A DNA stretch of 64,000 nt from assembly GCA_003151625.1 (NCBI GenBank), contig PLYC01000007.1:81181-145180 (forward strand), written 5' to 3'. This document shows positions 7,254 through 62,466 of this stretch, in pieces. The position numbers were made by a program, and so were the translations under genes. The notes beneath the pieces are model-generated. The model was not told the DNA's origin, did not search any database, and saw only the letters and a program-made list of their open reading frames with translations. Position 1 is the stretch's first letter; every line of letters begins with the position of its first letter. This DNA is from Candidatus Doudnabacteria bacterium (GTDB taxonomy: Bacteria; Patescibacteriota; Doudnabacteria; UBA920).

Positions 7254-7435
7254 AACCAGTTTGTTTAAATTATAGTTTAGTTTTTTGAATAAGTCTGTAA
7301 ATTTCTAATTATTTTAATTTCTAATTGACCTAAACAAACCCCAATAACTAATGCAATTAGAAATTGGGTATTGGGATTTGTTTAGAAATTAGGTAAATTA
7401 GAATAATTAGAAATTTTTGTTATAGTATAAAATTT
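7254..7435. repeat. AT-rich iteron-like array (aatttctaatt / aattagaaatt x5) around a central hairpin, upstream of radA
   Basis: Two direct and three inverted copies of an 11-mer are arranged symmetrically around ctaaacaaaccccaata...tattgggatttgtttag. Confidence 0.5.
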
Positions 7436-8758: not shown

Positions 8759-8826
8759 TTGACCCATTTATGGGCTGTCCGATATATTTATTAGATTTTC
8801 CAGGAGATTGTTTCGGGATGTCCTTG

Positions 8827-8867
8827 CAGTTTCCCCTCCCTTTACGGGAGGGGCTAGGGGAGGGTGA
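8827..8867. repeat. REP-like palindromic element, family 1 (cagtttCCCCTCCCtt-N-acGGGAGGGGctaGGGGAGGGtga)
   Basis: Near-identical copies at 56811-56851 and 57465-57505. Variant copies lie in frame inside the PPDK_N gene. Confidence 0.8.
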
Positions 8868-9060
8868 TGAGTTTGCGATACCATATATAAATACAAGGAC
8901 CGAACGCAGCTCCACCACGTTCGGCCCTGTCAGGTTTCGGGAGCCCCTCGGTTCCCAAAACAAGCCTTTAAAAGCAAATTAGTTCACCCTGGAGCTATCT
9001 GTTAGCCGCACGGAGCTGGCGGCTATGGATGCACTAATTGGCTTTATGGGCTGTTGTGGT

Positions 9061-15037: not shown

Positions 15038-16102
15038 CTAAAGCATCGTAATCGGTCTGGACTGGGTAATATAGAATTTCCCGTTTTCAAAAGCCCACTC
15101 AATGTCCTGCGGTTTGCCGTAATGTGTTTCTATATTTTTGCAAATTTTGGCAATTTCCACTATTTGCTTGCCGGTAAGTTTTTGTTTGCCTCCGGTTGCC
15201 TTGTCTAATTTCTTATTTCTATTTCCTGTTTTCTCTCTTACTATGGCAAAAGTTTGCTCGGAAACATTTATGTCCAAAATGGAAAAATTGTTTTTGTGAA
15301 CAATATAAGTGTCCGGAGTAATCATGCCGCCGACAATAGCTTCTCCCAAACCAAAACCGGCTTCCACCACCATTTGGTTCTTGTCTTTGGTTACCGGGTG
15401 CACGGTAAAACTAATTCCGGAAACCTCGCTTTGCACCATCTTTTGCACCACAACCGCCACGGAAATCCTTGTGTTTATTCCCCTCCCTTGCTTGTCCGCC
15501 GTAGCTTTAGCGAAGGAGGGACGGGAGGGGTGGGGGGAGGGTGATTTTTTTGTTTTGTAAAACCCTTTCTCAAAAGCATAAAAAATTGCCCTGGGCGTAA
15601 ATAGCGAAGACCAGCATTTTTTTACACTGGCAATAACATTTTTTTCCGTTACATTCAAATAAGTTTCCAGCTCCCCGGCCCAGGAAGCAACCGATGAGTC
15701 CTCGGCCGTGGCGCTAGATCTAACGGCTACAAACTGGTTTATTCCCCTCCTGCCCGAGGAGGGGTTAGGGGAGGTGGGAGATTTTTTAAACAGCTGATGA
15801 TACGCCTCCATAATCTCTTTCTGCAAATCCTCCGGAATAACCTCATCCAAAATCATCCTGCGGATTTCCGCCGAAGCCTTGTCCACAGAATTAACATCCT
15901 TATGGTTGACTTTTTTCAGCAACGCCTCTATATCCGCCTCAATCTCCGTCTCCTCCAAAAATCTGTCAAAAGCACCCGCAACCACTACAAACCCTTGCGG
16001 CACCGGCAATCCCGCCTTAGTCATTTCCCCGAGCGAGGCTCCCTTGCCCCCAGCAATGTCGACATCTTTTTTTGAAATTTGCCCAAAAGTTTTTATGTGC
16101 AT
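15038..16102 (-). CDS. Stand-alone PPDK_N / PEP-synthase-type ATP-grasp (nucleotide-binding) domain protein, with two in-frame REP insertions
   Basis: GGKGASLGEM motif, VAVRSSATAED, VAVVVQKMV and DIEWAFENGKFYITQSRPIT, which are hallmarks of the PEP synthase / PPDK / rifampin-phosphotransferase ATP-binding domain. Extra segments SPTSPNPSSGRRGIN and KKSPSPHPSRPSFAKATADKQGRGINTR coincide with REP DNA. Confidence 0.8.
   Translation of the reverse strand: MHIKTFGQISKKDVDIAGGKGASLGEMTKAGLPVPQGFVVVAGAFDRFLEETEIEADIEALLKKVNHKDVNSVDKASAEIRRMILDEVIPEDLQKEIMEAYHQLFKKSPTSPNPSSGRRGINQFVAVRSSATAEDSSVASWAGELETYLNVTEKNVIASVKKCWSSLFTPRAIFYAFEKGFYKTKKSPSPHPSRPSFAKATADKQGRGINTRISVAVVVQKMVQSEVSGISFTVHPVTKDKNQMVVEAGFGLGEAIVGGMITPDTYIVHKNNFSILDINVSEQTFAIVREKTGNRNKKLDKATGGKQKLTGKQIVEIAKICKNIETHYGKPQDIEWAFENGKFYITQSRPITML
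15476..15544. repeat. REP family 1 variant (composite with the cgctaaagctacgg hairpin) inserted in frame in the PPDK_N gene
   Basis: ttattcccctcccttg...ccgccgtagctttagcgaaggaggg...acgggaggggtggggggagggtga. Confidence 0.75.
15738..15779. repeat. REP family 1 variant inserted in frame in the PPDK_N gene
   Basis: tttattcccctcc-tgcccga-ggaggggttaggggaggtggga. Confidence 0.7.
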
Positions 16103-19909: not shown

Positions 19910-20003
19910 GGCGTCATTCTGAGCGAGTGCATCCGAGCGAAGAATCTCTAACAAGAATGAGATCCTTCACCTTTCGGCTGCACTCAAGGTTCAGGATGAC
20001 GCC
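19910..20003. mobile_element. MITE-like nested palindromic element, family 2 (termini ggcgtcaTtctga ... tcaggatgacgcc)
   Basis: ~94 bp. A second copy lies at 60719-60809, with shared termini and inner gaagaatctcta...atgagatccttc...cggctgcactc blocks. No ORF is present. Confidence 0.65.
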
Positions 20004-20055
20004 GAAGTGAGAATAATACGCTATAAATATAGCAATATTAATGATTTTTCGCATA

Positions 20056-22240: not shown

Positions 22241-22266
22241 GTGTCCAATTCTATAGAATTGGACAC
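22241..22266. promoter_or_regulatory. 26-bp perfect palindrome gtgtccaattctatagaattggacac (candidate ArsR-family operator) overlapping the annotated GTG start
   Basis: A perfect dyad immediately upstream of the likely ATG (22277) of the ArsR-family gene. A near-identical dyad lies at 22573-22594. Confidence 0.6.
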
Positions 22267-22276
22267 AAAAAACAAA

Positions 22277-22555
22277 ATGAATAATAAAAATATCCACAAA
22301 TGGTCAAGGATTTTTAGAGGACTGGCTAACCCTCACCGTTTGGAAATGATAAAGCTTTTAAAGAAGAATGGTAAAACCGCGGTTTCGGTTTTGGCCAAAG
22401 AAGTGGGAATTTCCGTAAAAAACACCCCCCGGAATTTAAGAATATTACACGACTTGGAAATATTGGAGTCTTTGGGAAAATCGGACCATATTTTTTATAG
22501 TATTTATACCGGCCTGGATAAAGAAGTGAATTTGATTATAAAAATGTTTGCTTGA
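22277..22555 (+). CDS. ArsR/SmtB-family winged-helix transcriptional regulator
   Basis: LANPHRLEMIKLL matches the ArsR hallmark (LADPTRLxIL) followed by an HTH. The start is more likely ATG 22277 than the GTG at 22241 inside the operator. Confidence 0.7.
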   Translation: MNNKNIHKWSRIFRGLANPHRLEMIKLLKKNGKTAVSVLAKEVGISVKNTPRNLRILHDLEILESLGKSDHIFYSIYTGLDKEVNLIIKMFA

Positions 22556-22572
22556 ATGCTTTAGGCTTTGGT

Positions 22573-22594
22573 ATCCAATTCTATAGAATTGGAT
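22573..22594. promoter_or_regulatory. Second copy of the tccaattctatagaattgga dyad (22-bp perfect palindrome) between convergent arsR-like and comF genes
   Basis: atccaattctatagaattggat. Confidence 0.55.
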
Positions 22595-23466: not shown

Positions 23467-26058
23467 TTACGCGACCGGTACTGCGACTTTTTCCAGCCTT
23501 TGCAGACTAAATACAATCTTATCACCCTTAACATCAGCGCTAATTTTGGATCCGTCCGGGGAGCGGCCGGAGATAATTTTTTCGGCCAGCGGGTCTTCTA
23601 TATAGGTTTGAATGTTTTTGCGAATGAAGCGCGCGCCTTGCGCCGGGTCAAAGCTCTTGTCGGTTATAAATTTAATGACTGCCGGGGAAATTTTCATCTG
23701 CACGTTCTGTTCCAGCAGGCGAGCCTGAAGTTGGGCAATTTGCAGTTGGGTAATTTTTTTAAGCTCTTCAAAGCCCAAGGGACGAAAAATAATAATTTTG
23801 TCTATGCGATTTAGAAATTCCGGTCGGAATTCCTTTTTTAACTCTTCATTAATACTTTCTTTAATATTTTCGTATTCTTTTTCCAGTTTGGCCTTTTGGT
23901 CCGCCACGGCTCGACTGTCGTGTCGAGACGGGTCAATTTTTTCGCTCTTGTCGGCAAATCCAATCTTCGCGGCCTGGTTGGTAAGTTCCTTCATACCAAG
24001 GTTGGAGGTCATAATTATTACCGTGTTGCGGAAAGACACTTTTTTTCCTTCGGCATCGGTTAACTGCCCGTCTTCCAAAATTTGCAGGAAAATGTTAAAT
24101 ACGTCGGGATTGGCTTTTTCTATTTCGTCGAACAAGACTACAGAATAAGGTTTTCTGCGCACGGCCTCGGTCAGCCTGCCGCCTTCGCCGTAGCCAACGT
24201 ATCCGGCCGGAGCGCCAATAAGCCGCGAAACATTGTGTCGTTCCATAAACTCGCTCATATCTACCCGGATAAGCGCGTCCTCGTCTTCAAAAATTTCTGA
24301 CGCCAAAACTTTGGCGGTTTCAGTTTTGCCCACGCCGGTGGGTCCTAAAAATATAAAAGAGCCAAGCGGCCGTTTGGGGTCGGTAATTCCGGCTCTGGAA
24401 CGGCGTACGGCTTTGGATATTTCCTCAACGGCCTCGTTCTGCCCAATAACTTTGGCCTTTAGGATTTTTTCCAAATTAGCCAGTTTGCCAATTTCCGTTT
24501 TGGCCAGGCGGGCCAGGGGGATTTTGGTCATCATGGAAACCGTATGGGCAATGTCCTCCGAAACAATTACGTGTGTCGGGGTTTTTTCTTCCGCGGCCAA
24601 ACCTTTGGCCAGCTGTTCTTTTTGCTTAAGCAGTTTTTCTTCCAGGGTTCTTAAATGCAGGGCGGTGGTAAAATCCTGTCCTAAAACCGCTTTGGTTTTT
24701 TCTTCTTCAAGCGCTGCTAAATCGGCCTCTATTTTTTTTGCAGCTCTAAGCAATTTGCTGTTGGAATTTATGGAGCGCAAAAAGGCCGCGGTTTCATCAA
24801 TCAAGTCCACTGCTTTGTCGGGCAAATAACGGTCTTGGATATAGCGCGATGAAAGTTCTACCGCCGACTTAATGGCTTCATCGGTAATGGTTACGTTATG
24901 ATGCTTTTCGTAATTTTGCCTTAGCCCCTGTAAAATGGCCACGGTTTCTTCTTTGCTGGGCTCGTCCACTATTATGGGCTGGAATCTTCTTTCCAGTGCC
25001 GCGTCTTTCTCTATGTGTTCTTTATATTCCTTTAAAGTGGTGGCGCCAATAGCTTTTAGTTCGCCTCGAGCCAGTGCGGGCTTTAAAATGTTGGCCGCGT
25101 CCAAACTGCCCGTGGTGGCGCCGGCTCCCACCATAGTGTGTAGCTCATCTATAAATAAAATGACGTTTTTGTCGTTTTTAACTTCTTCTATAATTTGTTT
25201 TAGGCGGTTTTCAAATTCTCCGCGGAACATACTTCCGGCAACAATTAAAGCCAAATCCAGCGCCAGGATTTTTTTGTCGAGTAGGGAGTCGGGGACTTCG
25301 CGTTTGGTAATGGCCAAAGCCAAGCCTTCCACAATGGCGGTTTTTCCCACGCCGGCTTCGCCAATTAAGATGGGATTATTTTTGGTTCGGCGATTCAAAA
25401 TGGAAACCAGGCGTTCGATTTCACTTTTTCTGCCAATGACCGGGTCAACCAAACCGCTCAAAGCTTTTTTGGTTAAGTCCGTGGTAAAAAATTCCAAGAG
25501 GCCGCCTTTTTTGGCTTCCGCCATTTTAGGAGGCATCATTGGCCCCGGACCTTCGAAAGGAGCGCTGGGATGACCTTCGTTGCCAACGGGCATTTCCGGA
25601 AACTTGGAAATGTTATCAAAAACATTTGTTAGGTTTTGTTCCAGTTCTAAGATATCTATTCCTAATTTGGACAAAATAACTTTGGCTTTGTTTTGCGGTA
25701 CGGTCAGCAAACCAAATAAAAAATGTTCGGTGCCAATAAATTGGTAGCCGTATTGGCTGGCCACAATGGCCGATTTTTCTATAACTGATTTTAGATTTTC
25801 CGAAAGTACGGGCTTCCAGGAGCTTACAATGTTGTTACTGTTCACAAAGATTAATTCCTGTTTTACTATTTCCGGCGTAAGCTTGGTCTTGGTTAAAATT
25901 TCCGCGGCAAAAGAGCTCTTTTCGGAAATTACGCCGTATAAAAGGTGCTCGGTGCCAATGTGGTCGTGCTTTAGTTCTTCGCTGGCCAATTGCGCCATAA
26001 TAAGGGCGTTTTTCGCCCTTGAAGATAGTCGTTCAAGTATGTAGGTAAAATTTGTCAT
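23467..26058 (-). CDS. ClpB/ClpC-family AAA+ chaperone (two Clp_N repeats, two AAA+ modules)
   Basis: 863 aa. Walker A GEAGVGKT (NBD1) and GPTGVGKT (NBD2), with a middle coiled-coil domain. Confidence 0.9.
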   Translation of the reverse strand: MTNFTYILERLSSRAKNALIMAQLASEELKHDHIGTEHLLYGVISEKSSFAAEILTKTKLTPEIVKQELIFVNSNNIVSSWKPVLSENLKSVIEKSAIVASQYGYQFIGTEHFLFGLLTVPQNKAKVILSKLGIDILELEQNLTNVFDNISKFPEMPVGNEGHPSAPFEGPGPMMPPKMAEAKKGGLLEFFTTDLTKKALSGLVDPVIGRKSEIERLVSILNRRTKNNPILIGEAGVGKTAIVEGLALAITKREVPDSLLDKKILALDLALIVAGSMFRGEFENRLKQIIEEVKNDKNVILFIDELHTMVGAGATTGSLDAANILKPALARGELKAIGATTLKEYKEHIEKDAALERRFQPIIVDEPSKEETVAILQGLRQNYEKHHNVTITDEAIKSAVELSSRYIQDRYLPDKAVDLIDETAAFLRSINSNSKLLRAAKKIEADLAALEEEKTKAVLGQDFTTALHLRTLEEKLLKQKEQLAKGLAAEEKTPTHVIVSEDIAHTVSMMTKIPLARLAKTEIGKLANLEKILKAKVIGQNEAVEEISKAVRRSRAGITDPKRPLGSFIFLGPTGVGKTETAKVLASEIFEDEDALIRVDMSEFMERHNVSRLIGAPAGYVGYGEGGRLTEAVRRKPYSVVLFDEIEKANPDVFNIFLQILEDGQLTDAEGKKVSFRNTVIIMTSNLGMKELTNQAAKIGFADKSEKIDPSRHDSRAVADQKAKLEKEYENIKESINEELKKEFRPEFLNRIDKIIIFRPLGFEELKKITQLQIAQLQARLLEQNVQMKISPAVIKFITDKSFDPAQGARFIRKNIQTYIEDPLAEKIISGRSPDGSKISADVKGDKIVFSLQRLEKVAVPVA

Positions 26059-26145
26059 AGATAGTTGTAAGTTGTATGTTTAAAGTTGTAAGTAAAGCCT
26101 ATCTGCTATACTTAAATTATGTCATACATTAAGATTATAGCAAAA

Positions 26146-26172
26146 TTATCACTCATGTCAATAGAGTGATAA
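26146..26172. promoter_or_regulatory. CIRCE-like inverted repeat TTATCACTC-N9-GAGTGATAA (candidate HrcA operator) upstream of the Clp ATPase gene
   Basis: Same 9-9-9 architecture as CIRCE (TTAGCACTC-N9-GAGTGCTAA), with two symmetric substitutions per arm. Confidence 0.55.
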
Positions 26173-26223
26173 GACGCGGAATTAACGCTGAACTACTGCA
26201 GTTGCTGAAAGGGACGCTGAAAC

Positions 26224-26261
26224 ACAAACTCAGCGACCTAATCAGTGTACATATCAGCGAC
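26224..26261. repeat. Family 3 repeat (inverted orientation): cagcgacctaatcagtgtacatatcagcga
   Basis: Reverse complement of the 26807-26847 copy. Together they bracket recX. Confidence 0.65.
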
Positions 26262-26802
26262 CTATCGGCGGAATATGTATAAACAAAGAAGCAAAACTAA
26301 AGAGCCACAAAACGAACTAAAAGCATACGAGTATGCCGTGTTTTTGCTTTCACTGCAGTTGCGTACGGTCGGCGAAGTAAAAGAGAAAATGGAAAAGCGC
26401 GGGTATGCTTCGAATATTATCGCGCATACGATAACCCAACTGACTGACCAGAAATATTTGAACGACGAACGGTACGCCGAAGTTTATTTGAACAATTTAA
26501 AACAATACAAGCATTTGGGCTACTATGGCATAAAAAGAAAGTTTATGGCCAAGAAATTACCGTCGGAAATAATCGAAAAGGTTTTAAGCGAAGGATTGCC
26601 GCTCGAAGACGAACTAAAAATTGCCAAGAGGCTTTTAAAAAAAGAAGGCGTTGTGGCAAAGGAGTCAGACGATGATTCCGTGGTATCGGATAATTCTTAC
26701 AGAACTTATAACAGCGAACAATCCAAAGACAAACAAAAACTCTCCGCCAAACTAAAAAGCCGCGGTTTCCGCGGCGAGATCATTGCACAGTTATTACGCT
26801 GA
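26245..26802 (+). CDS. recX: RecX-family regulatory protein
   Basis: Three-helix repeat pattern ...AYEYAVFLLSLQLRTVGEVKEKMEKRGY...IIAHTITQLTDQKYLNDERYAEVYLNN... Confidence 0.7.
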   Translation: MYISATYRRNMYKQRSKTKEPQNELKAYEYAVFLLSLQLRTVGEVKEKMEKRGYASNIIAHTITQLTDQKYLNDERYAEVYLNNLKQYKHLGYYGIKRKFMAKKLPSEIIEKVLSEGLPLEDELKIAKRLLKKEGVVAKESDDDSVVSDNSYRTYNSEQSKDKQKLSAKLKSRGFRGEIIAQLLR

Positions 26803-26806
26803 ATAA

Positions 26807-26847
26807 TCGCTGATATGTACGCCGATTAGGTCGCTGAATCTTCAGTT
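26807..26847. repeat. Family 3 repeat: tcgctgatatgtacgccgattaggtcgctgaatcttcagtt
   Basis: A near-identical copy lies at 52996-53036. Inverted copies lie at 26224-26261 and ~27262-27296. Confidence 0.7.
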
Positions 26848-27239
26848 CGCGCTTTGTCGTAGATTACGCGTTTGATTTCAAGTCGCTTGGGTGAAAAATT
26901 TATTAGAAAACCGAGTTTATACTCGGAACCCTTCAAATAATTCCAAAAAGTGGCCTCGTCTTGTTTGTTGACAAAAGGCTTCGATTTTAGTTCCAAGACA
27001 ATTTCATTGTTAACAACTTTGTCTGGAACATAAGTACCAACCTTTTTCCCTTCATAATATATGTTTATTCGTTTCTGGCATTCAACCGTTAATCCTCGTT
27101 TTTCAAGAGCAATAGTAAGGGCGTTGTCCACTATTGATTCTTTAAACATTCCTCGAAATTGCTTCCAGACATCAAAACAGGCTCCTCTAATCTCGTAAGA
27201 CTCCTTTTCATATAAAAAATCTTTAACTAACTTTGACAT
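26826..27239 (-). CDS. GxxExxY-family protein (PD-(D/E)xK-like fold)
   Basis: YEIRGACFDVWKQFRGMFKESIVDNALTIALEKRGL...EIVLELKSK...KLGFLINF matches the GxxExxY family pattern. Bracketed by family 3 repeats. Confidence 0.65.
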   Translation of the reverse strand: MSKLVKDFLYEKESYEIRGACFDVWKQFRGMFKESIVDNALTIALEKRGLTVECQKRINIYYEGKKVGTYVPDKVVNNEIVLELKSKPFVNKQDEATFWNYLKGSEYKLGFLINFSPKRLEIKRVIYDKARTEDSAT

Positions 27240-27306
27240 TCCGCTAGAATTTAACTCTTAGCTTCAGCGACAATATCAGCGTACCTATCAGCGACTGTTC
27301 AGCGGC

Positions 27307-28248
27307 TTATAAATTCATCTCCCTTAATCTTTTAACCCTGTCCGCAATTGGCGGGTGGGTGTTAAATAATCCGGCCAGCCAGCTGCGGGCGCCGTGGGGA
27401 TTTTCCGGGTGGTCGGAGGTGGATTCTTCGCGGTCTTCATGGAAGGGGTTAACTATGTATAAATGCGCGGTGGCGTTGTTGGCTTCCACCAGGGGAGTTT
27501 GGTCGTCGGAAATTTTTTCCAAGGCCAAGGCCAAACCCTCTGGGTAGCGCGTTAAAAGCGCTCCCGAGGCATCGGCTAAATATTCGCGCTGGCGGGAAAC
27601 GGCCAGTTTAATTATTGTGGCTATAAGCGGCGAAAGAATTGCCAAAAGTATGCCGACGGCAAAAAGTATCATCCCAAGGTTGCCGTTGTCTTTGCTATTG
27701 CTTCGGCGTCCGCCAAAAAAAGAAAAACGCAAAAACCAATTGGACATAAGGGCAATCATTCCCACTAATACAACGACCAGCGTCATTAGTCTAATATCAT
27801 AATTTCCAATGTGTGAAAGTTCGTGCGCGGTCACGCCTTCGAGTTCGGTTTTGTCCAGTTTTTGCAAAATACCGGTGGTAAAACAAATCACCGCATGCTT
27901 GGGGTCGCGACCGGTGGCAAAGGCGTTGGGCGCGGGGTCGTTAATAATATAAATTTTCGGCGTGGGGATGCCGGCGGCAATGCAAAGATTTTCTACTATA
28001 TTGTAGAGCTGCTGGTTTGTCGCTCGGTCAACCAACTGTGCCTTGGAAACTGCCAAAGTTATGGAATCGGCAAAGTAATAGGAAAACAGCGCCGAACCAA
28101 CGCTAAAAATAACGGCCAAATATAGAATCGCGTCATTCTGGTAAACCTGCGCAAATACCCAGCCGAGCGCCGAAATCACTATCAAGAAGCTGAATATTAA
28201 AATCCAGCTCTCGCGCTTATTTTTGTTAATGAGATCGTATGTGAGCAT
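27307..28248 (-). CDS. htpX: Zn-dependent protease HtpX (M48 family)
   Basis: HELSHIGNYD (HExxH) and four TM helices. Adjacent to lemA. Confidence 0.85.
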   Translation of the reverse strand: MLTYDLINKNKRESWILIFSFLIVISALGWVFAQVYQNDAILYLAVIFSVGSALFSYYFADSITLAVSKAQLVDRATNQQLYNIVENLCIAAGIPTPKIYIINDPAPNAFATGRDPKHAVICFTTGILQKLDKTELEGVTAHELSHIGNYDIRLMTLVVVLVGMIALMSNWFLRFSFFGGRRSNSKDNGNLGMILFAVGILLAILSPLIATIIKLAVSRQREYLADASGALLTRYPEGLALALEKISDDQTPLVEANNATAHLYIVNPFHEDREESTSDHPENPHGARSWLAGLFNTHPPIADRVKRLREMNL

Positions 28249-28425: not shown

Positions 28426-28971
28426 TTAGAATTGGACTTTGACCGGCTGGGCTTCCGGGCCGCTTTCGTCTATGCCAAAAAAATCTTTTTTGGTAAAGCC
28501 GAACATAGAGGCAAAGAGGTTGGTGGGGAAGACCTGGAGTTTGGTGTTGTAGTCGCGGACATTGCCGTTGTAGAAGCGCCGGGCAGCCTGGATTTTATCT
28601 TCGGTGTCTGTAAGGTCGCTTTGCAATTGCATAAAATTGGCATTGGCTTTTAAGTCCGGGTAAGCCTCGGCCACGGCAAACAAACTTTTTAATGTGCCGG
28701 AAAGCGCGTTTTCCTGTTTGAGTTTATCGTCCATACTGCCTGCGTTCATAGCGGCGCTACGGGCGGCGGTAACCTGCTCAAACACGCCGGCTTCGTGGGT
28801 GGCATAACCTTTTACGGTTGAAACCAAGTTAGGGATTAAATCGTACCTTCTTTTTAATTGCACTTCAATATCGCTCCAGGCTTCTTCTACGCGGTTTTTT
28901 GAGCGCACCAAACCGTTGAACATAAGCACTAAAATAACCAAAATCGCTAAGATTATCCAAACTGCTATCAT
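28426..28971 (-). CDS. lemA: LemA-family membrane protein
   Basis: N-terminal TM helix and a conserved LemA core (...RRYDLIPNLV...), in the conserved LemA-HtpX arrangement. Confidence 0.8.
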   Translation of the reverse strand: MIAVWIILAILVILVLMFNGLVRSKNRVEEAWSDIEVQLKRRYDLIPNLVSTVKGYATHEAGVFEQVTAARSAAMNAGSMDDKLKQENALSGTLKSLFAVAEAYPDLKANANFMQLQSDLTDTEDKIQAARRFYNGNVRDYNTKLQVFPTNLFASMFGFTKKDFFGIDESGPEAQPVKVQF

Positions 28972-31578: not shown

Positions 31579-31585
31579 CAAACAA

Positions 31586-31672
31586 ATTAACACGAATTGA
31601 TTACTAATAAACACGAATGAGCATATCGCATATTCGTGTTAATTAGTTTGCAGTATTCGTGTTAATTAGTTA
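31586..31672. promoter_or_regulatory. Four-site TTAACACGAAT operator-like array (two direct and two inverted copies around gcatatcgcatat) upstream of gatC
   Basis: ttaacacgaat(31589)...taaacacgaat(31610)...attcgtgttaa(31635)...attcgtgttaa(31660). The same 12-mer aacacgaatgag occurs at 9-20 upstream of the VirB4-like gene. Confidence 0.55.
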
Positions 31673-31964: not shown

Positions 31965-32071
31965 TTAAGATCCAAGAAGCAAAGAATCAAGAACCAAACA
32001 CTGCAACTGCAGTTTTGGATCTTGATATCTTGAATCTTGGTTCTTCGTAAGCTCAATTCAAGATTTAAGAT

Positions 32072-40054: not shown

Positions 40055-40151
40055 TTAATACCGCGGATCCAAACGCGGATGACGACGCAGATCTGACGCG
40101 GAAGATCAGTATCTGCGTTTAATCCGCGCAGCTATCTGCGTTAAATCAGCG

Positions 40152-44405: not shown

Positions 44406-44417
44406 AACAAACAATAT

Positions 44418-44493
44418 CCTAATATCAAAAATATCCTAATATCTTTGAAAGATATTAATAGATATTTAGATATTAGGATATTTAAAAAAACTT
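44418..44493. promoter_or_regulatory. Array of four AATATCCTAATATC sites (two direct, two inverted) between proS and mreB
   Basis: aatatcctaatatc-aaa-aatatcctaatatc...gatattaatagatattta-gatattaggatattt. Related GATATT-rich arrays lie at 59538-59633. Confidence 0.55.
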
Positions 44494-44515
44494 ATCGTGA
44501 CTTAAAAATAGAATT

Positions 44516-46463: not shown

Positions 46464-46466
46464 CAA

Positions 46467-46514
46467 GCATTTAGCGGTTAGCAAAGCAATTTTGCTTGGC
46501 TAACCGCTAAATGC
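46467..46514. other. 48-bp hairpin with a 16-bp perfect stem between mreC and mreD
   Basis: gcatttagcggttagc-aaagcaattttgctt-gctaaccgctaaatgc. Confidence 0.6.
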
Positions 46515-46533
46515 TAAATGCTAAAAGCTTCTA

Positions 46534-52983: not shown

Positions 52984-52995
52984 ACCGCTGAATAG

Positions 52996-53036
52996 TCTCT
53001 GATATGTACGCTGATTATGTCGCTGAATCTTCAGTT
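52996..53036. repeat. Family 3 repeat solo copy (ctctgatatgtacgctgattatgtcgctgaatcttcagtt)
   Basis: ~90% identical to 26807-26847. Confidence 0.7.
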
Positions 53037-53110
53037 GTCATCCCGGAATTTTTTGCGCTGATGGATATCACAAGCCGCAAAAATATCCGGGAGCTAGAAA
53101 TAAGTAACTT

Positions 53111-53371
53111 ATGAATAAAACATTTTCCAACATCGCGTATATTTGCGGCTTAATTATAGGCTTGGTACTTGTTTACAATAGCGCACTTGCCCAGCCGAAT
53201 ATTGGTAATGGTATTGGAGAGGTGTTTCAGTCACAATTTGACAGAATTTTTGGGTTTGTCATTGGTGGAATAATGATTTTTGCTTTTTCAATATTTTTGG
53301 TCGGTAGAATTTTGGAATCTTATTATAAGAATAAGAAATCAACCGACCAAGAGCAAAAGGTTGCTAAATAA
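53111..53371 (+). CDS. Small hypothetical membrane protein inserted between nusG and rplK
   Basis: 86 aa with two TM helices. Confidence 0.35.
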   Translation: MNKTFSNIAYICGLIIGLVLVYNSALAQPNIGNGIGEVFQSQFDRIFGFVIGGIMIFAFSIFLVGRILESYYKNKKSTDQEQKVAK

Positions 53372-53492
53372 TTTTATTCCTGCTTCATAACTCGCGCTTC
53401 TCGAATTATGAAATTTGAATAAAATATTAATTTAGAGCCAGTTCATGTCCGGTTTGGATCTTGAATCTTGGTTCTTGGATCTTATTACATTT

Positions 53493-53915: not shown

Positions 53916-54022
53916 GTAAAATTAATTAAAAATAAATAAAATTAAGTAAAATTAAGTAAAATTTACTGCGGATAATTTTGGTCAATTTTACTTAATCATG
54001 GTCAATTTTATTTAATAAATTT

Positions 54023-54781
54023 ATGGACATCATCTCGTTACTTGTTATTATTTTTGTCTTCATCGTCCTTCCCGGTTTCCGCGTAATTCAGCAGTACCAA
54101 AAAGGCGCGGTGTTTCGTTTCGGCAAAATCACAGGCATTAAAGAGCCGGGGTTGACCTGGATAATTCCTTATATTGAATGGGTAAGAAAAGTGGACTTAC
54201 GAACCATAACCCTGCCTATTCCGCCCCAGAAAATTATTACTAAAGACAACGTTTCCGTGGATATATCGGCTGTGGCTTATTACCAGATTGTCGATGTTGT
54301 TAAAAGCATTGTCGCCATAGAAAACGTAATGTCGGCAATTAACCAAATTTCGCAAACTACCATCCGCAATATTGTCGGCAAGTTCCAGCTGGATGAAATT
54401 CTTTCCGAGAGAGTCACTATAAACCAGGAAATCCGCGATGTACTTGATACTCACACGGAGCCCTGGGGCGTAATTGTTTCGCTGGTGGAAATCAAAGATA
54501 TTGAACTGCCGGAAAATATGCAACGGGCCATGGCCAAGCAGGCTGAAGCCGAACGCGAAAAGCGCGCGAAAATTATTGCCGCCGAAGGTGAATTTTTATC
54601 GGCTCAAAAATTGGCCGATGCCGCGGACGTAATAGCCATGCACCCGATAGCTTTACAGTTGCGCAACCTCCAGACAATGGCCGAGATTTCCGTGGAAAAG
54701 AATTCCACAATTATCTTCCCGGCGCAGTTTATGAGCACTATTGATGATATTAAGAAGTTTTTGGATAAAGAAAAAATATAA
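54023..54781 (+). CDS. SPFH/band-7 (stomatin/QmcA-like) membrane protein inserted between rplK and rplA
   Basis: N-terminal TM helix, the SPFH core (...GAVFRFGK...) and a C-terminal coiled coil. Confidence 0.75.
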   Translation: MDIISLLVIIFVFIVLPGFRVIQQYQKGAVFRFGKITGIKEPGLTWIIPYIEWVRKVDLRTITLPIPPQKIITKDNVSVDISAVAYYQIVDVVKSIVAIENVMSAINQISQTTIRNIVGKFQLDEILSERVTINQEIRDVLDTHTEPWGVIVSLVEIKDIELPENMQRAMAKQAEAEREKRAKIIAAEGEFLSAQKLADAADVIAMHPIALQLRNLQTMAEISVEKNSTIIFPAQFMSTIDDIKKFLDKEKI

Positions 54782-54859
54782 TTAACGATCACAGATCTGG
54801 CACAGATGTCGCTGATTACCGCGATTAGCGCCATCAGCGAAATCTGCGATTAATATTAT

Positions 54860-55195
54860 ATGAGCCTAAAAAAAGCTTATCTCTACCTGGTTTCCACTAT
54901 TGCTTTAGTCATCACGGTCATTGGCGCGATTATGATAATAAATTTGGGGCTTAAAGCCTGGGTCTTTACCAAGGCAGACCAGAATTATTACCCCTACCCT
55001 TGTACCCAGCCTGTAGCTGACGTGAGCGGCAAATCCGTTCCTTGCGATCAGGCAACTATTGACGCACAAAAGAAACAGGCCCAAGACAATCAAGCCTCCC
55101 AAAGGCAAAACACCGCTGCCCAAGCCCTGGCTATGATAATAGTAGCCACGCCGGTTTGGTGGTTCCACTGGAGACTGGCGAAAAGAGAACAGTAA
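54860..55195 (+). CDS. Small hypothetical membrane protein
   Basis: 111 aa with two TM helices. Confidence 0.35.
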   Translation: MSLKKAYLYLVSTIALVITVIGAIMIINLGLKAWVFTKADQNYYPYPCTQPVADVSGKSVPCDQATIDAQKKQAQDNQASQRQNTAAQALAMIIVATPVWWFHWRLAKREQ

Positions 55196-55208
55196 TTTTG
55201 TATAAAGT

Positions 55209-55418
55209 ATGACTTTAGGAAGAGAAACTTTAAACGGAAGTTTGTTTGAGGAATATAAAACTCGGATAGACGCCGCCCAAACCACAGAGGATTTGGCTGA
55301 TATTATTGCCGGAGTTGAAAATCCTGCCGATCGCGAAAAAGTTATGTACGCGGCGGCGAGGAGGCATAATTTAATGTTGACCAGAAAAGTTGAGGGGATT
55401 TTAAAAAATAATAAATAA
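55209..55418 (+). CDS. Small hypothetical protein
   Basis: 69-aa ORF, in the same orientation and tightly spaced with its neighbours. Confidence 0.3.
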   Translation: MTLGRETLNGSLFEEYKTRIDAAQTTEDLADIIAGVENPADREKVMYAAARRHNLMLTRKVEGILKNNK

Positions 55419-55495
55419 TTTGTGGGAGAACCATCACTGGATTACTTTTTTGTAATACAGTAAGATTCATTCGTACCACGAAAGGAAATCATCAT

Positions 55496-56754: not shown

Positions 56755-56810
56755 AAAAGTTTTTATATAAAAATTGATTCCGTTTAGTTTTTTGCCATCA
56801 TGAACCCCTG

Positions 56811-56851
56811 TAGTTTCCCCTCCCTTAACGGGAGGGGCTAGGGGGAGGGTG
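56811..56851. repeat. REP family 1 copy
   Basis: tagtttcccctcccttaacgggaggggctagggggagggtg. Confidence 0.8.
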
Positions 56852-56960
56852 TAATACGATTTGAATAAAGAAAGGTGATGGGGTTTAGCGCAGTCTAAAC
56901 CCCTTGAGCGTGTAACTAACGGCAGAAAAGCTCTGCGGCCATTGGTTACGAAGAGCGAAA

Positions 56961-57419: not shown

Positions 57420-57464
57420 GAGACTGGTTTTACCAATCTTTTGCCAGCAAAGCGGTTTGTCCTG

Positions 57465-57505
57465 CAGTTTCCCCTCCCTTGACGGGAGGGGCTAGGGGAG
57501 GGTGA
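57465..57505. repeat. REP family 1 copy (followed by a ccgcc-ttcgctaaagctac-ggcgg hairpin at 57533-57560)
   Basis: cagtttcccctcccttgacgggaggggctaggggagggtga. Confidence 0.8.
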
Positions 57506-57593
57506 TTAAATTTAATTAAGCCTTATTCGTTATCCGCCTTCGCTAAAGCTACGGCGGATTGTTGCACTATTATTTTTTAATTAATGTGCAACA

Positions 57594-59537: not shown

Positions 59538-59633
59538 AAGATATTGATAGATATTATTGAAATTAGGATATTATCTGAAATTTCATTAATATCTACCAAT
59601 ATCAATAATATCTATAAATATCCATTTGATTAC

Positions 59634-60681: not shown

Positions 60682-60718
60682 TTTTGGTATTCTAAAGTGT
60701 GTCCGTCCTCGTGACTTC

Positions 60719-60809
60719 GGCGTCTTTCTGAACCCGAATGCATCTGAGGGTGAAGAATCTCTAAATTTTAATGAGATCCTTCGTCGGCTGCACTCCTCAG
60801 GATGACGCC
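60719..60809. mobile_element. MITE-like element, family 2, second copy, immediately upstream of tmk
   Basis: ggcgtctttctga...gaagaatctctaaattttaatgagatccttc...cggctgcactc...tcaggatgacgcc. Confidence 0.65.
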
Positions 60810-62374: not shown

Positions 62375-62466
62375 TACAAATATACTGATGCATGCGGATA
62401 CCTCTGCCCCAATCTGTATTATCAGTATCATCCGTATTTTAATTCGTATATCAGTATCTTATAACC

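Follow-up and report, generated by a model that had tools for sequence, protein, structure and literature searches.

The region of interest lies in a stretch of 64,000 nucleotides from Candidatus Doudnabacteria (contig PLYC01000007.1, positions 81,181 to 145,180; hereafter the window), in which a small gene of the GxxExxY family is enclosed, next to recX, by two mirrored arrays of one short word. The gene order at this locus is clpC (minus strand, 23467-26058), recX (plus strand, 26275-26802), the GxxExxY gene (minus strand, 26826-27239), htpX (minus strand, 27307-28248) and lemA (minus strand, 28426-28971). The identities given to recX and to the GxxExxY gene in the first-pass annotation of this DNA both hold. 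The recX open reading frame (ORF) matches RecX_HTH1 and RecX_HTH2 above the Pfam cut-offs (46 bits for HTH1 and 37.5 bits for HTH2, cut-off 26; HTH3, the last of the three tandem three-helix domains, is below its cut-off at 18 bits) and the NCBIfam RecX equivalog models below theirs, and 160 homologues were retrieved at E <= 1e-20. The GxxExxY ORF, which encodes 137 residues, reaches 98.8 bits against TIGR04256 (cut-off 35; profile positions 2-116 of 116) and 95 bits against PF13366 (PDDEXK_3; cut-off 22), and it is the only gene of this family in the 64-kb window.

Inverted copies of a repeat of about 40 bp had been reported around both genes, and these copies are real. The 41-mer at 26807-26847 is found again at 52996-53036 with 3 mismatches (0 expected from shuffled sequences), a pair which a repeat finder extends to 51 nt at 92% identity (26797-26847 and 52986-53036). 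The inverted copies lie at 26230-26271 and 27264-27305, a few bases away from the earlier 26224-26261 and 27262-27296, and the inverted arms given by the repeat finder measure 46 nt with 83-87% complementarity. Copy A (26230-26271), inverted relative to B and D, is the right arm of a gene-less hairpin; copy B (26797-26847), an array with an inner extension of 10 nt, is the downstream (3') end of the cassette; copy C (27264-27305), also inverted relative to B and D, is its upstream (5') end; and copy D (52985-53036, plus strand) is a solo array directly 3' of the nusG stop codon. Each copy of about 42 nt consists of the word TCAGCG (CGCTGA when read on the opposite strand) repeated four times, the starts being 12, 12 and 11 nt apart. 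The repeat is thus a phased array of one word and not a unique sequence. The 8-mer TCAGCGAC occurs 7 times against 0.78 expected, all 7 within repeat elements. A degenerate copy had also been placed near 54800-54845; this site proved to be a separate small hairpin (54782-54859, plus strand, fold z = -4.1), alike in style and no clear copy, with one CGCTGAT/ATCAGCG word pair and CAGAT/ATCTG words. An exact scan of metagenome and viral contigs with a degenerate 28-mer of the repeat gave no match, because the spacers are too variable for such a search.

The complete cassette (26797-27305, minus strand) measures about 509 bp with both outermost words included, and is lodged between the stop codon of the convergent recX and that of the co-directional htpX. 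Read in the sense of the gene, it opens with the upstream array, CCGCTGA-N-CGCTGA-N-CGCTGA-N-CGCTGA, at spacings of 11, 12 and 12 nt, followed by a leader between the inner word and the ATG (27240-27263) which is homologous at loci L002, L012 and L013. The last codons of the GxxExxY gene and its stop codon fall inside the downstream array, and the outermost word of the cassette, CGCTGA, provides recX with its last codon (Arg, CGC) and its stop, TGA. RecX accordingly ends in ..LLR* in the window and in ..VIR* at L012, where the cassette is present, and in ..LVF* at L057 and L001, where it is absent. No promoter-like site was predicted on the minus strand between htpX and the GxxExxY start.

The first-pass annotation had described the GxxExxY gene as an accessory insert packaged in a mini-cassette bounded by inverted repeats. 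This has been borne out, since the unit recurs at about 30 homologous loci. A metagenome scan with the GxxExxY protein gave 45 loci. Nearly all homologues down to about 55% identity have 3-7 CGCTGA words in the 100 nt before the start codon and 3-6 TCAGCG words from the stop codon onward, and over 30 loci the orientation of the words is almost absolute (upstream GCTGA, 114 forward and 3 reverse; downstream TCAGC, 106 forward and 2 reverse). The word spacings at these loci are almost exclusively 10, 11 or 12 nt, with 11-12-11 as the canonical order, and the positions between words are unconserved apart from their A/T richness and an A preceding the word. At about 24 other loci, the unit measures 470-545 bp with termini CCGCTGA...TCAGCGG, and at about 30 loci the terminal inverted repeats (TIRs) have arms of 42-50 nt which score 25-66, against a shuffle maximum of about 20-29. 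The insertion sites are diverse: a 90%-identical homologue, P0005 (L002), lies between ychF and His_Phos_1 with inverted arrays of 50 nt (76% complementary), the cassette of L013 follows ychF in the opposite orientation to L002, and those of L014 and L015 stand beside an atpH-like gene. Copies of the repeat thus do flank small ORFs elsewhere, as had been asked of them, and the arrays accompany GxxExxY genes instead of forming a ubiquitous repetitive extragenic palindrome (REP) with no tie to small ORFs. At L022, L026, L027 and L029, the outer TCAGCGG is directly followed, outside the downstream array, by a short G+C hairpin, GTCCTCC-N3-5-GGAGGAC; the corresponding hairpin at L017 (993-1010) is GTCGCG-AAG-CGAC. 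Such a hairpin may belong to the element itself or be a target that it prefers.

A crude stop-to-stop ORF analysis of the neighbours places the upstream one in the same direction at 14 of the 15 scorable loci and the downstream one in convergent orientation at 16 of 22, and neighbour stop codons often lie inside the outermost word. Expression of the GxxExxY gene by read-through is the simplest reading.

The encoded protein belongs to a large family, with 712 homologues retrieved at E <= 1e-10, many of them 70-90% identical and distributed over various lineages of the Candidate Phyla Radiation (CPR), e.g. Wolfebacteria and Giovannonibacteria. No relative was found among the viral contigs scanned with the protein alignment, and none of the PADLOC anti-phage defence models matched at E <= 0.01. 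The PD-(D/E)XK catalytic set (E34, D73, E83 and K85) is invariant across 46 homologous sequences, and the Y of the GxxExxY name motif is replaced by V or I in the clade of the window protein. An AlphaFold2 model (pLDDT 87) has the secondary-structure order H-H-E-E-E-E-E-H-E-E, and its best Foldseek matches are PD-(D/E)XK nucleases, at template modelling (TM) scores below 0.5. These matches, which comprise Cas4, lambda exonuclease, MGME1, Hjc and tRNA-splicing endonucleases, are too weak to indicate a substrate. A sequence search of the PDB returned no relative, and the protein is, according to the model, a minimal PD-(D/E)XK core without a close solved relative. This PDDEXK_3 protein is the sole ORF of the cassette, in which no recognised transposase (DDE, HUH, serine or tyrosine) was found.

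Evidence on what is under selection in the arrays comes from their divergence. Between cassettes, the ratio of nonsynonymous to synonymous substitutions (dN/dS) of the gene is 0.01-0.03 (about 0.02) with saturated synonymous sites, and over the same divergence the spacers are randomised and all eight words keep one sequence. Spacer complementarity reaches 55% within an element and 53% between unrelated elements; since the within-element value equals this control, hairpin pairing was rejected as the selected feature. Judged from these sequences, the pattern fits recognition of the words by a repeated trans-acting unit and not selection for base-pairing alone. The word differs between clades of the protein, and distant homologues have other words: TGGCGT/TTAGCGT (L030, L041, L043), CGCGGAA (L045), CGCAGA/TCTGCG (L065) and CACTAA/TTCGTG (L057), with further types at L046, L050, L052-55, L063 and L064. 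In cultured organisms outside the CPR, they are ACACGGATTCG/CGAATCCGTGT (Treponema) and GATTTG/CAAATC (Prevotella), and one GxxExxY subclade has GTAGAAGCTGA termini (L031). The inverted repeats of the Treponema copy (L064) share the motif ATCCGTGT with the copy on a Fusobacteria plasmid (L062, see below). A DNA uptake sequence was considered for the words and ruled out, as many different words coexist in one genome.

The repeat is best explained as the terminal array of a compact selfish cassette, made of an array of four phased 7-nt words, (A)CGCTGA, a PD-(D/E)XK gene (130-140 aa) and a mirrored array, and a nuclease-driven model of this element is, overall, favoured with modest confidence. 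That gene and arrays travel as one mobile unit is very probable. That the cassette's own nuclease binds the words and drives mobility is plausible, and is put forward tentatively. On this model the encoded nuclease would bind the words, with a single subunit on each of them and successive subunits spaced by about one turn of the helix. The enzyme would assemble on both ends, with four sites per end, and the breaks it introduces would move or copy the unit, the junctions being sealed by host repair without target-site duplication. Gene-less arrays would represent non-autonomous derivatives, which would account for copies A and D.

Array pairs without a gene are indeed found in the window and elsewhere. 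The region 26175-26220, which the first-pass annotation had overlooked, holds four reversed and partly decayed words (CGCGGA, CGCTGA, TGCTGA and CGCTGA), and copy A is for this reason one arm of a back-to-back hairpin (26174-26274, plus strand; arms 26175-26220 and 26230-26271) located between a CIRCE-like operator and the recX ATG. This hairpin of about 100 nt folds at -33 kcal/mol (z = -4.3). Comparable pairs of 79-91 bp occur at L016, L017, L029 (two), L031/L036 and L056, usually less than 1 kb from a full unit; gene-less pairs fold as hairpins with z of about -4 to -11, and solo arrays were also seen. Arrays A, B and D are 81-90% identical, spacers included (81-83% between the right arm of A and B, 90-92% between D and B), a likeness exceeding the 79% between B and its L012 orthologue, which indicates that A, B and D were copied within this genome. 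Solo array D shares the 10-nt inner extension with B, and no partner arm or gene was found with it. A further gene-less pair in the window (40055-40151, plus strand) belongs to a sister word family, with four CGCGGAT/CGCAGAT words followed by four ATCTGCG/ATCCGCG words, and the same words flank the GxxExxY domains nested in LepA (L045) and GatB (L065).

These nested domains are copies of the cassette located in frame inside housekeeping genes. At L045 (437-1504, LepA-like) and L046 (2263-3449, RecG-like), the reading frame is stop-free through the first array, the GxxExxY domain and the second array. A single-sequence search of 1.8 billion cluster representatives retrieved 4,485 GxxExxY relatives (50%-identity representatives) at E <= 0.001. 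Many of the best 150 of these 4,485 are long proteins in which the domain occupies a central position, and Pfam identifies as hosts among these 150 GT4 glycosyltransferases (five), RecG (six), LepA (two), LeuRS, GatB, asparagine synthase (AsnB) and O-antigen ligase. In GatB (L065, 501-2447), four CGCAGA/CGCCGA words precede the domain and four TCAGCG/TCTGCG words follow it; a second, solo in-frame array stands 450 nt further on (about 1990-2030) and encodes nearly the same peptide (SIPRFSASSLRESAV). The peptides around the other nested domains look like translated arrays as well. The whole nested insert, array-domain-array, amounts to about 170 codons, in which Pfam recognises PDDEXK_3 only and no Hint (intein) domain.

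Several observations weigh against the nuclease-driven model. At a dN/dS of about 0.02, the gene is more strongly conserved than a pure parasite would be expected to be. At L060 (7090-7560), a 23S_rRNA_IVP gene (S23p, bAvd-like), whose product is a four-helix bundle, lies between inverted TAGGG/CCCTA arrays. This array-gene-array unit carries a cargo which is not a nuclease, and the cargo need therefore not be the mobilising enzyme. These two findings are the main reasons for caution. Moreover, gene-less array pairs stay uninvaded beside resident nuclease genes, and the flanks of the 29 elements inspected contain no consistent direct repeat that would indicate target-site duplication, hence no junction signature naming a mechanism. 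On the Fusobacteria plasmid CP102406 (L062, 1335-2029), the GxxExxY gene is flanked by a direct repeat of about 50 nt (..CAGATTTAATCCGTGTACCTAT..), not by an inverted one. The cassettes of the window and of L012 are 79.6% identical in nucleotides and the flanking htpX genes 82.5%, and with a divergence resembling that of htpX this insertion may be old and immobile now. Likewise, domains nested in RecG share 45-67% identity, compared with 40-60% for the RecG core, a similar divergence from which it follows that the RecG insertions are old, the nuclease residues being nonetheless kept. Binding, cleavage or transposition has been demonstrated for no GxxExxY protein, and PMC3424549 gives the function of PF13366 as 'Unknown' and notes 'multiple transfers'.

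The closest described thing to the cassette is the ORF-bearing intervening sequence (IVS) of 23S rRNA, of the S23p / 23S_rRNA_IVP type (Coxiella, Leptospira). The Coxiella IVS is a selfish element of 428 nt whose ends form an inverted-repeat stem; 3-4 tandem heptamers precede its small ORF, S23p, and RNase III excises it (PMC4990558). Both kinds of element are a few hundred bp long, are bounded by terminal inverted repeats, and have one small ORF filling the interior, preceded by tandem short words. They differ in their cargo, a PD-(D/E)XK nuclease in the cassette and a four-helix bundle in the IVS, and in their location, intergenic or inside protein-coding genes for the cassette and within an rRNA helix for the IVS. 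Furthermore, the IVS heptamers are contiguous, whereas the cassette words stand 11-12 nt apart with non-complementary spacers.

It is on this similarity that the first alternative is built, in which the cassette acts as RNA. The arrays would pair in the read-through transcript and the stem would be cut by RNase III, or by the encoded protein as an RNA endonuclease, so as to separate the cassette RNA from the host mRNA; the encoded protein would not be the mobilising enzyme. Besides the similar design and RNase III excision of the Coxiella element, this proposal draws on the S23p-family gene with inverted TAGGG arrays in the htpX/lemA slot of L060, on the promoterless cassettes lying behind co-directional genes, on the good folding of gene-less pairs and on the presence of tRNA-splicing endonucleases among the weak fold matches. 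However, pairing alone does not need the identical sequence of all eight words, and with non-complementary spacers the stem would be reduced to four helices of 6-7 bp broken by internal loops. The nested copies, in frame and stop-free through both arrays, appear to be translated rather than removed from RNA. Taken together, an RNA-level element of this kind is unlikely.

The strong purifying selection on the gene suggests another possibility, that GxxExxY is a domesticated protein beneficial to the host, which binds or nicks DNA sequence-specifically, the scattered arrays serving as terminators, insulators or recombination sites and the gene being merely flanked by its own sites, e.g. for autoregulation. 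Nested domains conserved like the RecG core and arrays located at gene 3' ends, often between convergent genes, are in line with this proposal. So is the effect of the words on reading frames. A spacing of 11-12-11 places the TGA of the word in all three frames, and 32 of 48 arms (two thirds) close every frame, against 18% of shuffles. Arrays as a designed three-frame stop nevertheless proved to be partly true only, as the 11-12-12 clade of the window closes two frames, and frame closure is regarded here as an effect which spares the neighbours some damage and does not prove design. Word hairpins occupying many intergenic regions of the window also speak for a host function. They were identified as imperfect tandem-word hairpins at 1892-1982, 7254-7435, 31579-31658, 31965-32071 and 40055-40151, with more at 44406-44515, 46464-46533, 53916-54022, 59540-59622 and 62375-62466, and the word differs from region to region (TTTTCAAT, AATTTCTAATT, CACGAAT/ACTAAT, CAAGAA, CGCGGAT/CGCAGAT, GATATT and others). 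Chains of exact 5-mers spaced by 8-13 nt make up 13 regions of the window, against 2.2 in shuffles, and ordinary core genes (gatC, frr and folA) have word hairpins at their flanks. These hairpins may be terminators, or gene-less kin of cassettes with other word specificities. A role for the host fits poorly with the varying location of the cassette among close relatives and with the transposase-type genes which fill its slot in others. The 64-kb window has one GxxExxY gene for many word families, no PADLOC model matches the protein, and to settle in frame in unrelated housekeeping genes is characteristic of selfish DNA. A domesticated host system is accordingly improbable.

The nuclease could also act by homing. 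It would cut a target that is still free, which could be a gene-less pair or a specific site of the host; recombinational repair with an occupied allele as template would then bring in the gene, and natural competence would assist. Homing endonuclease genes, inteins and the enzyme I-Ssp6803I, a homing endonuclease of the PD-(D/E)XK type, offer the parallel of a small nuclease gene which colonises conserved genes and intergenic sites without target-site duplication, and the same RecG and LepA positions are repeatedly occupied by cassettes, in many divergent lineages. Cassettes occupy one and the same ychF site in either orientation, the gene-less pairs are shaped like an empty allele, and Saccharibacteria are reported to be naturally competent (PMC10187176). 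Homing is nevertheless quite improbable. Gene-less pairs stay unfilled less than 1 kb from a resident gene, the spacers differ among loci and leave homology arms of only about 45 bp at 75-85% identity, and the RecG-nested copies look vertically inherited. Unlike homing genes and inteins, the cassette brings its own repeated flanks, and its nested copies stay in the mature frame without a Hint domain. No intron was detected by an Rfam E-value search of 25900-27500, which gave only a chance-level match to a small RNA.

Comparison of the recX locus among relatives bears on a last claim of the first-pass annotation, which had recX and the GxxExxY gene each bracketed by an inverted pair sharing the middle copy; this is correct for the GxxExxY cassette but not for recX, a host gene that merely stands next to it. 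Six relatives keep the synteny clpC-recX-[slot]-htpX-[slot]-lemA, and the occupants vary. The window has the CGCTGA hairpin between operator and recX ATG, the GxxExxY cassette between recX and htpX, and a spacer of 177 nt, with no GxxExxY or S23p gene, between htpX and lemA. The closest relative, L057 (RecX 91% identical), has the same CGCTGA hairpin, a Y1_Tnp-like gene between recX and htpX, and a second GxxExxY gene with CACTAA/TTCGTG arrays between htpX and lemA. L012 combines an empty operator/recX-ATG site with a GxxExxY cassette in the same orientation as in the window. At L001 and L058, the first site holds a hairpin of TACGAAA/TACTAAT words; the recX/htpX slot is filled by a Y1_Tnp-like gene with GTAG palindromes in L001 and by IS1595 in L058. 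L060 has an empty first site, Transposase_mut between recX and htpX, and the 23S_rRNA_IVP gene with its TAGGG/CCCTA arrays between htpX and lemA. The slot of the cassette is thus held by other selfish genes in relatives (Y1_Tnp-like, IS1595, Transposase_mut). As the states of the A site and of the slot vary separately, the two brackets around recX are independent insertions. A TIR-bounded recX cassette sharing the middle repeat, suggested by the inverted copies A and B flanking recX (46 nt, 83% complementary), is hardly credible and was rejected, since recX lies next to clpC in six relatives, L012 has the cassette of copy B with an empty A site, L057 has the A hairpin without that cassette, and the A site of L001 and L058 is taken by a hairpin built from other words. 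The empty-site comparison proposed in the first-pass annotation was informative in part: presence and absence vary, and clean empty sites exist for the gene-less hairpin only (L012, L060), the recX/htpX slot having another occupant in every relative and no clean empty site for the gene-containing cassette.

Two further features of this locus were noted. The minus strand has a perfect promoter facing clpC, TTGACA-16-TATAAT, which overlaps with a CIRCE-like inverted repeat (26134-26171), TTATCACTC-N9-GAGTGATAA; this repeat is kept in all six relatives, and the gene-less hairpins insert just beyond it, before the recX start. The Y1_Tnp genes of the recX/htpX slot (IS200-like, RAYT-like; 164-176 aa) lie at L001 3756-4355 and L057 4525-5019, and that of L001 is flanked and internally marked by REP-like palindromes, GTAGGG..GGTTTGAAACC..CCCTAC.

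Among other known systems, miniature inverted-repeat transposable elements (MITEs) and insertion sequences (IS) with TIRs (Correia, RUP, IS-derived MITEs) share with the cassette the terminal inverted repeats, the coexistence of gene-containing and gene-less versions and of solo ends, presence or absence between relatives, copies at unrelated loci and a preference for intergenic 3' ends. In contrast to these elements, the cassette encodes none of the DDE, HUH, serine or tyrosine recombinases, its flanks gave no sign of target-site duplication, and its ends are arrays of one short word instead of a unique TIR of 20-40 bp. REP/REPIN-RAYT systems resemble it in their short inverted-pair repeats which form intergenic hairpins and are tied to a single-copy small gene, and in L001 and L057 the very recX/htpX slot that the cassette takes in the window houses a Y1_Tnp-like gene between GTAG-type palindromes. 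They differ in that the cassette gene encodes a PD-(D/E)XK protein and not Y1, lies between the two arms, and is accompanied by a phased word array, without GTAG in the window, rather than by a single palindrome. Rickettsia palindromic elements (RPE) are selfish palindromic DNA found in frame in protein genes and carry no gene. Like them, the cassette is tolerated in frame in housekeeping proteins; unlike them, it carries a whole translated nuclease domain and both arrays. The ends of Tn7 and Mu and the parC site of R1, with 11-bp repeats bound by ParR, are multi-site arrays bound by a transposase or a partition adaptor. Their short sites about one helical turn apart, on which a protein could polymerise, recall the cassette arrays, which are mirrored at both ends; here, the sole candidate binder of the words would be a minimal nuclease, a putative role.

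Small ORF-bearing selfish elements with inverted repeats are a known kind of element, and there is a real chance that the cassettes form a new, nuclease-driven class among them. Literature searches found no description of GxxExxY cassettes, with incomplete coverage, so that earlier knowledge of them is possible. In its broadest form, which is possible if rather doubtful, the proposal is that the cassettes constitute an unrecognised class of autonomous mobile element whose sole protein, a PD-(D/E)XK nuclease of about 130 aa, would recognise phased arrays of 6-7-nt words at both ends, the word specificity co-evolving with the protein. Such elements would have spawned gene-less hairpins that fill CPR intergenic spaces and would have colonised RecG, LepA, GatB, LeuRS, AsnB and glycosyltransferases as 'non-splicing inteins', with the S23p-type IVS as a sister branch. 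GxxExxY/PF13366 is a large family without known function, and if the gene, the arrays and their derivatives are one system, the family would gain a testable function, namely to bind and cut, in a site-specific manner, the words that flank its own gene. The same system would explain a large share of the word-built intergenic hairpins in Saccharibacteria and other CPR genomes, and CPR housekeeping proteins would carry translated selfish nuclease domains, which matters for annotation, phylogenomics and structure prediction. It would also connect with the 30-year-old puzzle of ORF-bearing rRNA intervening sequences, and the S23p-type rRNA IVS, long unexplained, would gain a testable mechanism. A minimal nuclease with programmable short-word specificity would have practical interest.

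Other repeats were observed in the window. The nusG-rplK-rplA block, normally contiguous, is interrupted at 52984-53444 and 53916-55495 by inserts delimited by word hairpins or arrays; the insert after nusG contains an 86-aa membrane ORF, and that between rplK and rplA an SPFH/Band7 gene, a DUF5671 gene and a 69-aa ORF. A palindromic repeat of about 100 nt, GGCGTCATTCTGAG..GAATCTC..GAGATCCTTC..CTCAGGATGACGCC, occurs at 19910-20005 and 60712-60808, and the same palindrome, of the GGCGTCATTCTGAG type, is present in frame inside recX of L001 (3590-3690), where it adds about 30 residues. The family TTTCCCCTCCCTT.ACGGGAGGGGCTAGGGGAGGGTGAT (8825-8875, 15521-15552, 15736-15786, 56809-56859 and 57463-57513) consists of a G/C hairpin and TAGGGG words, and resembles the words around the S23p gene of L060. 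Finally, a 34-nt inverted repeat containing TCCAATTCTATAGAATTGGA (22244-22277 and 22560-22593, 85% complementary) brackets a 104-aa ORF of the ArsR helix-turn-helix type (22241-22555).

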